From: Dictyostelium discoideum
Taxonomy: Eukaryota
Assembly (NCBI GenBank): GCA_000004695.1
Contig: CM000153.2
Span: 5,152,001 to 5,216,000, forward strand
DNA length: 64,000 nucleotides
Direction of reading: 5' to 3'
The notes beneath the pieces were generated by a model. That model had not been told where the DNA came from and did not search any database. It saw only the letters and a list, made by a program, of their open reading frames with translations. The translations under genes and the position numbers were made by a program. Positions 16,273-24,657 of the stretch are shown piece by piece; the first letter of the stretch is position 1, and each line of letters begins with the position of its first letter.

Positions 16273-16355
16273 GCAAGGGTAGGAAAGTCTGGTTAAATCC
16301 GTGTGACTTAAGATCTCATCCATTCGGTTCGCGAGTTCGAATCTCGCCTCTTGCA
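16273..16355 (+). tRNA. tRNA-Leu, anticodon UAA, type II tRNA with a long variable arm.
   Basis: The acceptor stem GCAAGGG pairs with CTCTTGC, with discriminator A. The anticodon loop is CTTAAGA, so the anticodon is TAA. A long variable arm TCCATTCGGTTC is present. The T-arm is GCGAG-TTCGAAT-CTCGC, and its internal B box reads GAGTTCGAATCTC. Confidence 0.85.
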
Positions 16356-19362: not shown

Positions 19363-19593
19363 TTATTTTTGTTCTCTTAATTGTTTATATAAATTTGTAG
19401 TTATATCCAAACGTTTTTGAGCATTTTCGAATTTGGTATTAGCTTCGGCAAGGGAGGCTTGTAATTGTTTATTTTGATTTGAGATGACATCATAACGAGC
19501 TTTACCTTCATCGATTTGATCTTGAAGAGATTGAATATCATCAGCTTTAATTTCACCATTACCATTAGCATTACCATTTTCAGTGTTACTGTT

Positions 19594-19624
<31 letters not shown>

Positions 19625-22437
19625 TTAATAATATTATTTAAATCTTGAATTTGAGTTTTTAATTGATCGATTTCAGTTTGTTTTTCAAAAGTAACAGATA
19701 AGAACTCAGCGTTTTTATTTTCTAAATCTTGTTGTATTTGAGAAACCTTTGAATCTTGTTCAGATTGTTTAGAGGTAATTTGTTGTAACTCTTGATCCTT
19801 TGAAGTTAATTCATCTTTAACAGATTGTAACTCTTGATCTTTTGAAGATAATTGATCTTTAGTTGATTGTAAATCTGAATCTTTTGAGGATAATTGATCT
19901 TTAACTGATTGTAAATCTGAATCTTTGCTTGATAATTGATCTTTAATTGATTGTAATTCTGAATCTTTTGAAGATAATTGATCTTTAGATGATTGTAACT
20001 CTGAATCTTTAGTTGATAATTGATCTTTAATTGATTGTAATTCAGAATCTTTGCTTGATAATTGATCCTTAGTTGATTGTAACTCTGTATCTTTAGCGGA
20101 TAATTGATCAGTGGTTGAAGATTGACAAGATAATTGATCTTTAGCAGATTGTAACTCTTGATCTTTAGTTGATAATTGATCTTTGGTTGATTGTAACTCT
20201 TGATCTTTTGAAGATAATTGATCTTTAGTTGATTGTAATTCTTGATCTTTTGAAGATAATTGATCTTTAACAGATTGTAAATCAGATTCAATTGATTTAA
20301 TTTGAGTGTCTTTATTTGATAATTGTTCATCTTTTGAAGATAATTGATCTTTGGTTGATTGTAATTCTTGATCCTTTGAAGATAATTGATCCTTAACAGA
20401 TTGTAAATCAGATTCAATTGATTTAATTTGAGAGTCTTTATTTGATAATTGTTCATCCTTTGATTTTAATTCTGAATCCTTGGATAAAAGTTGATCTTTT
20501 ACACTTGATAATTCTGAATCAGTGTTTGATGATTGTGATGAGAGTTGTTCCTTAACACTTGATAACTCTGACTCTAAGCATTTCAATTGTTCATCTTTTG
20601 AAGATAACTCTGAATCTTTTGATTGTAATTGTTGTTGTAAATTGAGTTCAATAGATTTCAATTTTTCATCTTTTGACTCGTTATGTTCTGATTGTTGTTC
20701 AAGTTGAGATTTAACATCTTGTAATTGTTGAAGAGTTTGTTGTAAAGTGAGTTCAACAGATTTCAATTTTTGATCTTTTGATTCACTATCTTCAGATTGT
20801 TGTTCAAGTTGAGATTTAACATTTTGTAACTCTTGATCTTTTGATTGTAATTGTTGGAGGGTTTGTTGTAAATTGAGTTCAACAGATTTCAATTTTTCAT
20901 CTTTTGATTGACTATCTTCAGATTGTTGTTCAAGTAAAGCAGATTGTTTCTTTGAAGTCTCAAGTAACTCTGAATCCTTTGATTGTAATTGATTTTGGAG
21001 TTTTTCAAATTCAGATTGTAATTGGCTCAACTCGGTGATCTTTGATTGTAATGCTTGAGATTCAGTGGATTGATTAGAGGCGAGTTGTTGCTTCAATTGA
21101 CTGATTTCATTTTGTAAATTATTGGTGGTGGTTTGTTGTTCAGATTGTTTTGCCTCTAATTGGTCAACGAGTTTTTCAATTTGGAAATCTTTTTCATCAG
21201 TGATATTTTTATTCATTTTCTCGTACATCTCTAAACGTTCAAGCAATTCAGCTGTACGTTTCTTTTCGTCTTCGTAGGAACGAATCAATTCGGTCTCTTT
21301 GGTGGTGAAACCATTGGTGGCTCTGGTTAACTCTCCAATCTTGGTTTCTTTTTGTGATAATACATTGGTTAAATCATCGACTTTCTCTGTGAATGATGAT
21401 ACTTGTTGTTGAAGTATTACAATTTGTTGTTGATATTTTTGTACCATTATCTCCTTCTCTGCTGAAATATTTGAAAGTTCACTTTGTAATTCAGTGATCT
21501 CTTTCTTTAAATTGGTAGTAGTAGTAGTATTATTACCACCATTTAATGTATAATTATATTGTTGTAAATCATTAGTTGATTGATTAATTGGTGAATTTGA
21601 TTCTGGTGTTTTTTGTTGTGTGGTGGTTGATTTATTTAATTCGATTTGTTGTTCTAATCTCTTTATTTTCTCTAATAAAGTAGTTTCAATATTTTCTTTA
21701 TTGGTGATTTCTTTTTTGTGAGAATCATTCAATAAATTGATTCTAATACTTGATTGTTCTCTTTCTTTTTCAAGTTGATTCTTAATTTCATTGATACTGG
21801 ATTTAAGATTTGAAATTTTTTCAAATTCTGTTGGTGCTGTTTTAACTGTTTTCCAAGTACCATCATTAAAATTGGTTGGTTCTTCTTCTATAATGACATT
21901 TGTAGTGGTGGTGGTAGTATTTTTGATTGGTTGTTTTACTGGTGGTTGTTCAACTTTAGTTGCTTGTTTCTTTGGTGGTGGTTGTTCAACAACTTTCTTT
22001 GGTTCTGCTACTTTCTTTGGTTCCTCTACTTTCTTTGGTTGTTCGACAACTTTCTTTGGTTCTGCTGCTTTCTTTGGTGGTTGTTGTTTTTCAACAACTT
22101 TCTTTGGTTCCTCTACTTTCTTTGGTTGTTGTTCAGTGACAGCTGGTTTAACGACTACTGGTTCAACTACTTTTGGTGATTCAACCTTTACAGTTTCTGA
22201 TTTAACCTCAACTGGTTTGGATGGTTGTTCTTTCTTTTTCTTTTGAGTGGTTGTTTGTTTGGTTGGTTGTTGTTGTTGTTTTTTATTAGTTTTTGATTGT
22301 TTTGGTGTGTTGTTATTAATTGTTTGTTGTTTGGCTAATGCTCCATCAAATATACGTTTTGGTTTGACAACGAAAAATTGATAGAAAAAGTAACCTGCAA
22401 CACAAGCCACAACTGTTAAAACTAATGCTCCTATCAT
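19363..22437 (-). CDS. Membrane-anchored long coiled-coil protein. N-terminal TM helix, PKK/PKKVEEP repeat region, and ~25 tandem 14-aa (42-nt) repeats of the type LSSKDQELQSTKDQ. The start is probably the internal Met (MIGALVLTVV...), not the AT-rich upstream Met.
   Basis: ORF 19363..22521. The hydrophobic stretch MIGALVLTVVACVAGYFFYQFFVV is followed by KPKR. The heptad-rich sequence carries SKDSELQS/SKDQELQS tandem repeats, conserved at nucleotide level across 19800-20500. Confidence 0.6.
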
Positions 22438-22833
22438 CACTTTTTTTTTTTTTTTTTGGTGAATAAAAAAAAAATAAATAAAAAAAATAAAAAAATAAAA
22501 AAAAAGTAAAAATATTAACATTTGAATGAATTCTTTTTTAAAATATAAAAATTAACAAACCTACCTTTTTTTTTTTTTTTTAATTGTTATACTATATTTT
22601 ATTACTATTAATATTTGTCTATATTGTTTTTTTTTTTTTGTTTTTTTTTTTGTTTTTTTTTTTTTAATATTTTCAGTTCCCTCACAAATATTTATAAAAC
22701 TTTTTTTTTAAAAAAAAAAAAAAAAAAAAAAATTGGTTAGTGATTTAATTTAATTTAACCCAAATTAAAAATAAAAAAAAAAAAATAAAAATAAAAAAAA
22801 CAATTTTATAAAAAAAAAAAAAAAAAAAAAAAA

Positions 22834-23385: not shown

Positions 23386-23621
23386 CACATTTTTTTCATT
23401 TTTTTTTTTTTTTCATGTTTTTTTTTTATTTTTATAAAATTCCATCAATTTTTGAACTTCATAAAAAAAAAAAAAAAAAAAAAACACAAAACACAATTTA
23501 TTTAGATCATCAATATTTTAAAATTAGTTGAAAATTTGGTTTTTTAATATAACATGATTTAATAATTAAATAGAAAATCTAAAAACCTCGCAGTAAGTTA
23601 TTCTATAGTGGAGTTAATAGA

Positions 23622-23677
<56 letters not shown>

Positions 23678-23728: not shown

Positions 23729-24130
23729 ATGGACAAACAAATAAGTAAAATAACAATAGAAAATGACTTTTATTCTGTTGAAAATGTAAGAGCAAATCCA
23801 CATAAACTATTTGTTTTTGGTGATAATAATGCCTCGCGTGGTAAAAAGGGTCAATCTATAATACGTGATTGTCCAAATTCACATGGAATACCAACAAAGA
23901 AGCATCCATCACTTCATCGATCATCGTTCTATACAGATAAAGAATTGAAAGATAATATCAAAAGAATTGATGAATCTATAGCCAAACTTAAAGAACGTTC
24001 ATCAGAATACCAAGAAATAGTGTTACCTGCTGCTGGTCTTGGAACTGGTCTTGCGCGTCTTCAAGAAAGTGCACCAAAAACTTTTGAACATTTACAAAAA
24101 GAATTAAATAAATTAAAACAAACAATTTAA
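23729..24130 (+). CDS. Small conserved hypothetical protein (133 aa) with a bacterial/phage-type motif.
   Basis: The motif reads [FV]FGDN-x-R-x-G-x-G-Q-x-RD-x-GIPTK in MDKQISKITIENDFYSVENVRANPHKLFVFGDNNASRGKKGQSIIRDCPNSHGIPTKKHP... It matches the pattern of a widespread prokaryotic family of unknown function, which I recall but cannot name with certainty. GC content is noticeably higher than in neighbouring genes, with cgt/gcg codons. Confidence 0.5.
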   Translation: MDKQISKITIENDFYSVENVRANPHKLFVFGDNNASRGKKGQSIIRDCPNSHGIPTKKHPSLHRSSFYTDKELKDNIKRIDESIAKLKERSSEYQEIVLPAAGLGTGLARLQESAPKTFEHLQKELNKLKQTI

Positions 24131-24657
24131 AAAATTAATTGCGTACACATTTATTAAAAATAGAATTATTTTATTTGTATTCTCATTGTGTATTAATACA
24201 CATTCTTCACCCCCTCGTAACTATTTCAAGAATTCTTTGTGAGTGTTTAAAATACGAGTAAACTCAAGACGTTCATTACCTTCAAATACATTAAGAAGAC
24301 AGGAAGTTTAAATTTTATATTTCTAATAGTTGATAATTTCTTTAATACACCCGAGATGTTGTTACAAATGTATGTTTTTTATGTGTGTTGGTTTTTGTGA
24401 AACATTTTTTTTTTTTTTCTTTTTTTTTTTTTTATTTTTTATTGGATTTAATTAAATTAATTCTTTTTTGGGGAAATGAAAAAAAAATAAAAATAAAAAA
24501 AAAAAAACTGAAAAATTAAAAATAAAAAATTAAAAATAAAAAATAAAAAATAAAAAATTAATGTTGCTTAGATAATCAAAAATATCATTTATTAATAAAC
24601 GGTTTATCGATTATCATATTTAAGGTGGGTTAATTTTGTAATGTAAACCATTTTTTT

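Follow-up and report, generated by a model that had tools for sequence, protein, structure and literature searches.

The stretch of DNA analysed here, referred to as the window, comprises 64,000 nucleotides of Dictyostelium discoideum contig CM000153.2 (assembly GCA_000004695.1, positions 5,152,001 to 5,216,000 of the forward strand). At 23729-24130 on the plus strand it contains an open reading frame (ORF), from ATG to TAA, encoding 133 amino acids plus the stop. The product was an exact match to XP_637451.1 / UniProt Q54L06, 'hypothetical protein DDB_G0286989 [Dictyostelium discoideum AX4]', and the ORF is thus the coding sequence of DDB_G0286989, a single-exon gene for a stand-alone DUF7831 domain protein. 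Q54L06 already carries the UniProt label 'DUF7831 domain-containing protein', so both the gene and its DUF7831 assignment are public. The gene is annotated yet uncharacterised, and searches of the literature by family name, gene identifier and accession found nothing on DUF7831, DDB_G0286989 or Q54L06. New here are the case for horizontal transfer, the evidence for selective constraint, the predicted macro-like fold with its association with the ADP-ribose network, and an inversion in the 3′ flank.

When the protein was compared with Pfam, residues 12-124 matched DUF7831 (PF25176) with an E-value of 6.4e-39 and a score of 132.9 bits, where the cut-off is 27. Profile positions 4-117/118 were covered, and the gathering threshold was therefore passed over the full model. 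The protein also matched PHROG family phrog_2072 (E=7.7e-13), while an NCBIfam scan and a phmmer search of PDB sequences gave no match. An earlier sequence-only reading of this DNA had quoted three motifs and had associated them with a bacterial and phage family of unknown function. Both points were correct, since FVFGDN, RGKKGQ and GIPTKK were located at residues 28-33, 37-42 and 53-58, and the family is DUF7831, or phrog_2072. The family motif set, consisting of GDN, G-x2-GQ, R, N, G-[IV]-P-T-K and P-x2-G-x-GTG-L, was complete in the DDB_G0286989 protein. All residues judged invariant on 17- and 77-sequence family alignments were present as well (G31, D32, N33, G41, Q42, R46, N50, G53, T56, K57, P60, G103, G105, T106 and G107).

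Intact orthologues with 87-96% amino-acid identity were found in four further assemblies of the D. discoideum complex (GCA_054859385.1, GCA_054859355.1, GCA_054859205.1 and GCA_054859235.1). In all five independent assemblies the gene occupied the same chromosomal position between the same host genes, with a coiled-coil gene of approximately 1000 amino acids on one side and a RING/B-box gene on the other, and the locus sits in host-like AT-rich flanks. Pairwise dN/dS among the five orthologues was 0.09-0.51. The synteny, these dN/dS values and the retained invariant residues together exclude both contamination and a pseudogene. DDB_G0286989 is almost certainly a real and functional host gene, and it is kept under purifying selection. 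The upstream neighbour, an ORF of 1052 amino acids at 19363-22521 on the minus strand, encodes a highly repetitive coiled-coil protein with dozens of 'SKD(Q/S)ELQS(T/V)KDQLSS' units plus PKK(V)(V/A)E(Q/P) repeats, and it was syntenic in all five assemblies. A long (TAA)n/(AAT)n microsatellite at 23621-23675, some 55-110 bp upstream of the start codon, aligned poorly across the assemblies (identity 0.18-0.36), which suggests length polymorphism.

The sequence-only reading had proposed the gene as a candidate for horizontal acquisition and had described it as compositionally distinct, with visibly higher GC and with cgt and gcg codons that are uncommon in neighbouring genes. The window is AT-rich (GC 0.218), and the ORF had a GC content of 0.313 and a GC content at third codon positions (GC3) of 0.120. 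The 19 long neighbouring ORFs ranged from 0.15 to 0.36 in GC and from 0.06 to 0.28 in GC3. Among 187 coding windows of 402 nt, its GC ranked at the 78th percentile and its GC3 at the 56th, so the gene does not stand out in GC. The codon observation was accurate in part. CGN codons accounted for five of the seven arginine codons, compared to 22% in the neighbours (binomial P=0.007, uncorrected), and one of the seven alanine codons was GCG, compared to one of 151 in the neighbours. The ORF contained eight CpG dinucleotides in 402 nt, giving an observed/expected ratio of 0.82 that was the highest among all ORFs (Poisson P=0.004, uncorrected), but two neighbouring genes equalled its CpG density per kb. 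CpG-containing codons are mildly enriched, and the gene is otherwise host-like in composition. The comparison of GC3 and codon usage had been asked for beforehand, with a GC3 inside the normal Dictyostelium range named as the outcome that would refute the compositional argument. Since GC3 is within that range, the argument fails on its own terms. Composition as evidence for transfer was dropped after the comparison of GC, GC3 and CpG with the 19 ORFs and 187 coding windows, and composition lends a foreign origin no support.

The distribution of the family gave a different picture. A word-indexed search of 5.8 billion proteins returned the Dictyostelium orthologues and four metagenomic proteins with 44-51% identity, and nothing else. 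When 1.84 billion cluster representatives were searched exhaustively with HMMER, 1916 clusters at 50% identity were recovered (E<=1e-3), many of them domains within proteins of 2000-6500 amino acids. Several domains of these giant multidomain proteins, all of them metagenomic, reached 55-56% identity to the Dictyostelium protein, and approximately 56% was the ceiling outside Dictyostelium. A profile search recovered 2618 proteins, and the only named non-Dictyostelium proteins among the best 120 were those of Tupanvirus, Cotonvirus and Acanthamoeba polyphaga mimivirus, with 50-52% identity. The contigs that carry the closest unnamed relatives are tightly packed with genes that have no introns and are of phage or giant-virus type, and one metagenomic relative (P0005) was on a giant-virus-like contig of 50 kb. 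No eukaryotic protein from outside the D. discoideum complex was present among the hits of the 5.8-billion-protein, HMMER-cluster and profile searches. The eukaryote-wide vertical orthologues that would have spoken against transfer thus did not surface among the named hits, and among annotated proteomes the distribution is patchy.

In phages, tblastn located the domain in 101 genomes, one of them an uncultured phage record at 51% identity and the others at 32-41%, and most of the positive phages infect Caulobacter, Rhizobium, Brevundimonas, Ruegeria or Pseudomonas. The homologue in Pseudomonas phage phiPto-bp6g (JN175269.1; L047, 4007-4390) is annotated as 'hypothetical protein DDB_G0286989', and its name was thus taken from the amoeba gene as the best BLAST hit. 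Bacterial and viral loci were scanned with a pattern from a 6-sequence alignment, and the locus counts are therefore lower bounds. A scan of one genome per prokaryotic species gave at least 36 bacterial or archaeal loci, mostly stand-alone genes of 130-165 amino acids in metagenome-assembled genomes (MAGs) of Pyrinomonadaceae or Chloracidobacterium, with 45-48% identity and often several copies per genome. IMG/VR contained at least 98 loci, including genomes of Megavirus and Moumouvirus size and giant-virus MAGs (GVMAGs). The top match there was a Megavirus-size genome of 1,259,197 bp, at 51%. Some prokaryotic labels may be misleading. A MAG labelled Methanobacterium sp. (L038, GC 0.28) and two Acidobacteria MAG contigs (L015 and L035, GC 0.41, with ORFs of more than 1100 amino acids) differed in composition from the remaining Acidobacteriota-labelled loci of the scan (GC 0.50-0.56), and may be viral or phage contigs that were mis-binned.

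Since the family is broad in the prokaryotic and viral mobilome but among amoebae occurs in a single narrow clade, the best explanation is that this clade received it by transfer. On this phyletic distribution, from which the direction is drawn, DDB_G0286989 was probably acquired horizontally. The acquirer would have been the ancestor of the D. discoideum species complex, and the source would have been the prokaryotic or viral mobilome, with a phage, a bacterial mobile element or a giant virus as candidate donors. After the transfer the gene would have taken on a host-like composition and been maintained by purifying selection. The earlier proposal of acquisition thus stands on distribution and finds no support in composition, and its label 'prokaryote-type' fits the bacterial relatives at 45-48% but is too narrow, because the Mimiviridae are as close at 50-52%. 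Two further points weigh against the acquisition or bear on its source. The distribution rests on annotated proteins, and unannotated dictyostelid genomes lay outside the searches. Furthermore, neighbour-joining trees of 310 domain sequences, extracted with a hidden Markov model and resampled in 100 bootstraps, singled out no donor. The Dictyostelium sequences formed a clade in 100% of the replicates, but the position of the clade was unstable. Of the labelled groups, the giant multidomain proteins lay closest to it 47 times, Acidobacteria 23 times, phages 21 times and Mimiviridae 9 times, and the distances to the nearest outsiders were all alike (0.67-0.79). The stable bacterial nesting that a phylogeny might have revealed was not seen.

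A more specific explanation is that a giant virus of the Mimiviridae lineage infected an amoebozoan ancestor and passed the gene to its host. The mimivirid proteins and the Megavirus-size genome among the best matches are consistent with this, as is the P0005 contig, and in several mimivirids the gene is conserved beside the A32 ATPase and a major capsid protein paralogue. The giant-virus loci are also AT-rich (GC 0.24-0.29), so little compositional change would have been needed after such a transfer. However, the Mimiviridae were nearest in just 9 of the 100 replicates, several domains of multidomain proteins are closer, the N-terminal VR[AS]NPHKLFVFGDN is common to Dictyostelium and a Pyrinomonadaceae protein, and the Dictyostelium locus has no other flanking viral gene. 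We regard this particular donor as unlikely, though far less so than the other route that has to be weighed, in which the gene is old in eukaryotes, descended vertically and persisted in the D. discoideum lineage alone, while viruses and bacteria took it from eukaryotes. The host-like composition and codon usage and the stable syntenic position in five assemblies would suit vertical descent. Against it, no other eukaryotic protein was recovered, the relatives examined were all on intron-free, densely packed phage, bacterial or giant-virus contigs, and the 1916 clusters, the 101 phage genomes and the multidomain fusions show how large and diverse the family is among phages and bacterial mobile elements. 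Eukaryotes would also have had to lose the gene many times independently, and vertical descent is very improbable. Acquisition from the wider mobilome is accordingly the explanation that we carry forward.

An AlphaFold2 model built from the 77-sequence alignment had a predicted local distance difference test (pLDDT) score of 93.7 and a predicted template modelling (pTM) score of 0.87, and consisted of four strands with flanking helices. Predicted secondary structure placed strands at residues 26-33, 51-57 and 96-100 and helices at 41-45 and 111-114. The first Gly-rich loop, G31-D32-N33...G38...G41-Q42 (23819-23854, plus strand), is a putative phosphate-binding loop, with GDN at the end of strand 2 and G-x2-GQ at the N-terminus of the helix. 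The segment G53-I-P-T-K57-K58 (23885-23902, plus strand), in which G53, T56 and K57 are invariant, is at the end of strand 3. A second Gly-rich loop, P100-A-A-G103-L-G105-T106-G107-L108 (24026-24052, plus strand), follows strand 4 with the P-x2-G-x-GTG motif and may be the other phosphate-binding loop. Its residues P100, G103, G105, T106 and G107 are invariant or nearly so in the family alignments. In the model, the conserved residues are found where the active site of a Rossmannoid domain is expected.

The model was set beside the macrodomains of human TARG1 (C6orf130), MACROD2, GDAP2 and PARP9 (macro 1). By eye, it resembled TARG1 (OARD1) and DarG in the order of the secondary-structure elements and in the two Gly-rich loops. 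Macrodomains of the TARG1/DarG type are ADP-ribosyl hydrolases whose substrates are Glu-linked ADP-ribose on proteins and ADP-ribosylated DNA or RNA. The TARG1 segments 'ITK84K' and 'MPRIGCGLDRL', checked against PDB chains, resemble 'PTK57K' and 'LPAAGLGTGLARL', also by eye, and on the same visual basis K57 is a candidate counterpart of the position of TARG1 Lys84 / DarG Lys80. Compared to macrodomains, DUF7831 is smaller, with approximately 125 residues, and it appears to have neither one of the hairpins nor the last strand. The protein would accordingly be a minimal macrodomain-like three-layer alpha/beta module, in which the GDN-x4-G-xx-GQ and P-xx-G-x-GTG loops and the invariant Thr-Lys of GIPTK57K would form a pocket for ADP-ribose or a related NAD-derived nucleotide. 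Acting like TARG1 or DarG, such a protein would bind or hydrolyse a conjugate of ADP-ribose or a product of its breakdown.

Domain fusions and gene neighbourhoods bear on this proposal. Among 72 multidomain DUF7831 proteins, the fusion partners included NADAR (2 proteins), ADP_ribosyl_GH (1 protein) and the SLOG-type domains cpYpsA, YAcAr, YpsA and DprA, and further partners were DUF488, an AlkB-like oxygenase, SF1 helicases and glutaredoxin. In a Pfam scan of the three largest DUF7831 proteins, two contained no other domain and the third gave weak sub-threshold matches. Mobile elements of Pyrinomonadaceae (L008, L010, L016, L020, L027 and L033) carried the order SSB - DUF7831 - (DUF4326) - a protein of approximately 550 amino acids - SSB, in several copies per genome, where neither the 550-residue protein nor a 763-residue neighbour had a Pfam match. 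In an Isosphaeraceae MAG (CBDIDH010000002.1; L040, 2093-4876), the DUF7831 ORF overlapped that of PRPP synthetase (Prs) on its upstream side and that of nicotinamide phosphoribosyltransferase (NAMPT) on its downstream side, and the three adjoin a sliding-clamp fragment. We take this cluster to be an NAD-salvage cassette of the type found in phages. On a giant-virus-like contig (Logan SRR32489420; L130, 1647-3728), DUF7831 was inserted between XRN_N and XRN_M of an XRN 5′-3′ exonuclease, a location that would fit a role at modified nucleic-acid ends. The conserved block that holds the gene in mimivirids also contains the A32 packaging ATPase, a TLC-domain protein and the capsid paralogue, an arrangement that says little on function.

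DUF7831 thus keeps the company of macrodomains, namely NADAR, ARH, SLOG, DUF4326 and NAD-salvage genes, and by analogy its associations resemble those of macrodomains in the viral NAD/ADP-ribose network. Iyer et al. proposed the processing of ribose-linked phosphates of ADP-ribose derivatives. Among the functions considered, one like that of a macrodomain is the likeliest for DUF7831. The narrower proposal that the DDB_G0286989 protein processes ADP-ribose or an NAD derivative, drawn from the model and from these analogies, is tentative and in our estimation falls a little short of an even chance. A number of results weigh against the macrodomain comparison. The protein did not match Pfam Macro (PF01661), and when 77 family members were searched against Pfam at E-values up to 10, just one matched Macro (E=0.019). 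Alignment to TARG1 with hhalign, as a single sequence and as a 16-sequence profile, gave a profile probability of 0.7%, and a profile hmmsearch of PDB returned nothing. The DarG models of PADLOC did not match, and Foldseek of the model against PDB found nothing significant. A canonical macrodomain has more strands than the four of the model, and the position of the catalytic Asp125 of TARG1 appears by eye to be Ala or Ser in DUF7831 and is not conserved. Clustering of neighbouring genes in 80 IMG/VR loci revealed no recurrent functional partner beyond the mimivirid A32/TLC/capsid synteny, and four annotated phage contexts were uninformative. Unlike the TARG1/DarG type with which the domain was compared, the loci examined contained no DarT-like toxin neighbour. 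Since the link to Macro is structural and visual, without support from sequence or profiles, we do not file DUF7831 as a macrodomain.

The same missing sequence and profile link to Macro, together with the lack of a PDB match in Foldseek, would be expected if DUF7831 were some other Rossmannoid nucleotide-binding module, for example SLOG/LOG-like. It could then sense or hydrolyse a different nucleotide or a modified base, or bind without catalysis. LOG proteins carry the motif 'PGGxGT', which the P-x-x-G-x-G-T of DUF7831 resembles, and the fusions to helicases, an AlkB-like oxygenase and DUF488, as well as the insertion into the XRN exonuclease, suit nucleic-acid or base-modification chemistry. 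However, some DUF7831 proteins carry SLOG domains of their own as fusion partners, which makes redundancy between the two domains improbable, and no Pfam SLOG or LOG family matched the DUF7831 domain, which did not qualify as a member of the SLOG superfamily (LOG/YpsA/DprA). We therefore consider a different Rossmannoid module a serious contender but rather unlikely, and prefer the macrodomain-like function. A still more doubtful extension of that function is that DUF7831 might be a clade of macrodomain-like ADP-ribosyl hydrolases that is pared down and has so far gone unrecognised. In phages and conjugative elements, often within giant injected 'polyvalent' proteins, it would remove ADP-ribose marks from nucleic acids or break down immune signals derived from ADP-ribose. 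The domain would then have spread to the Mimiviridae, with the version inserted in the XRN exonuclease among them, and from the mobilome to the social amoeba. There it would have been domesticated as a host factor, peculiar to the D. discoideum complex, that reverses ADP-ribose modification or acts against pathogens.

The sequence-only reading had also described the DNA after the stop codon as non-AT-rich, without an obvious ORF and unusually complex. The first two points were confirmed, as the non-poly(A/T) flank at 24131-24410 had a GC content of 0.257, which is above that of typical true 3′ flanks of the window (0.07-0.25) but only at the 77th percentile among all windows without an ORF, and contained no ORF longer than 41 amino acids. 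The complexity was not borne out in terms of a gene or a structured RNA. Rfam gave no match to the flank even at E-values up to 10, and a tRNA scan found none. RNA folding was no better than for shuffled sequences on either strand (z-scores 0.55 and 0.09). The flank was single-copy within the window, and tblastx and blastn showed no similarity to the DNA beside DUF7831 in more than 120 viral and bacterial loci. The sole notable feature was an inversion polymorphism. A segment of approximately 143 bp (24153-24295) was inverted in the D. discoideum assemblies L006 (10428-10560) and L128 (3403-3553) and had the AX4 orientation in D. cf. discoideum L129 (3411-3700). The inversion was seen as minus-strand blastn matches at 24232-24297 (89.7%), 24159-24188 (90%) and 24154-24322 (69%), and was confirmed by alignment after reverse-complementing. 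It explains why 24138-24316 aligned poorly between assemblies whose surrounding AT-rich spacer was 80-96% identical. The AX4 copy does not contain some 15-60 bp that are found in the other assemblies, and no inverted repeats were found bounding the segment. Downstream of it, a conserved non-coding block at 24317-24400 was collinear on the plus strand, with 89-91% identity to L006 and L128. The block was within a 74% plus-strand match to L129, and the identity in L007 was approximately 77% over 24338-24391.

The raised GC content, this conserved block, the occurrence of the segment in both orientations among close relatives, a perfect 16-nt palindrome at 24187-24202 and a hairpin with a 9-bp stem in the L006 version could point to an independent element in 24131-24410, whether a gene for a small non-coding RNA, a regulatory element that inversion switches or decayed donor DNA transferred with the gene. 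With no Rfam, tRNA or ORF match, fold energies like those of shuffled sequences, no similarity to the DNA beside DUF7831 elsewhere and no inverted repeats around the segment, such an element is quite unlikely. The inverted segment is in addition less conserved (69-90%) than the AT-rich spacer around it. Most likely, 24131-24410 is 3′ untranslated region (UTR) together with adjacent intergenic DNA carrying a small structural polymorphism, and not a second gene.

Two other features of the window were recorded. ORFs at 31893-32357 and 36585-37049, both on the minus strand and approximately 4.7 kb apart, encode C-terminal protein-kinase segments (HRDLK...DFG...) that are 97% identical (149/153), and from their sequences the pair looks like a recent tandem duplication. 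A tRNA-Leu gene with anticodon TAA, at 16273-16355 on the plus strand, was the only Rfam or ARAGORN match in the window.

The explanation that we favour overall combines a host gene, its transfer into the D. discoideum complex, a macrodomain-like function and a flank of 3′ UTR and intergenic DNA, and as a whole we give it slightly better than even chances. If the transfer holds, Dictyostelium gains one clean case of a lineage-restricted, selectively maintained gene from the pool of phages, bacteria and giant viruses. It would be a case that composition alone misses, and for which the compositional argument that had been offered was wrong. DUF7831 is a large family, with approximately 1900 clusters at 50% identity, and has no solved structure. 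The fold prediction and the company of NADAR, ADP-ribosylglycohydrolase, SLOG, DUF4326 and Prs/NAMPT together suggest a testable hypothesis of action on ADP-ribose or NAD derivatives, and Dictyostelium is a genetically tractable host in which it can be tested with a single-domain, single-copy representative.

Compared to other members of DUF7831/phrog_2072, the Dictyostelium protein is full-length and high-scoring and has all the invariant residues. Its relatives are often embedded in proteins of 2000-6500 amino acids or fused to other domains, whereas the Dictyostelium protein is a lone single domain from the only eukaryotic cellular lineage among the relatives recovered. The 2005 Dictyostelium genome paper reportedly lists candidates for horizontal transfer from bacteria to Dictyostelium, and dCTP deaminase / ThyX has been described as a case of such transfer (PMC10733785). 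Like these earlier transfers, DDB_G0286989 belongs to a family centred on prokaryotes and viruses, and it is chromosomal, intronless and host-like in composition. In contrast to them, its homologues are found chiefly among phages and giant viruses and not in core bacterial metabolism, and among annotated proteomes the gene is confined to the D. discoideum species complex.

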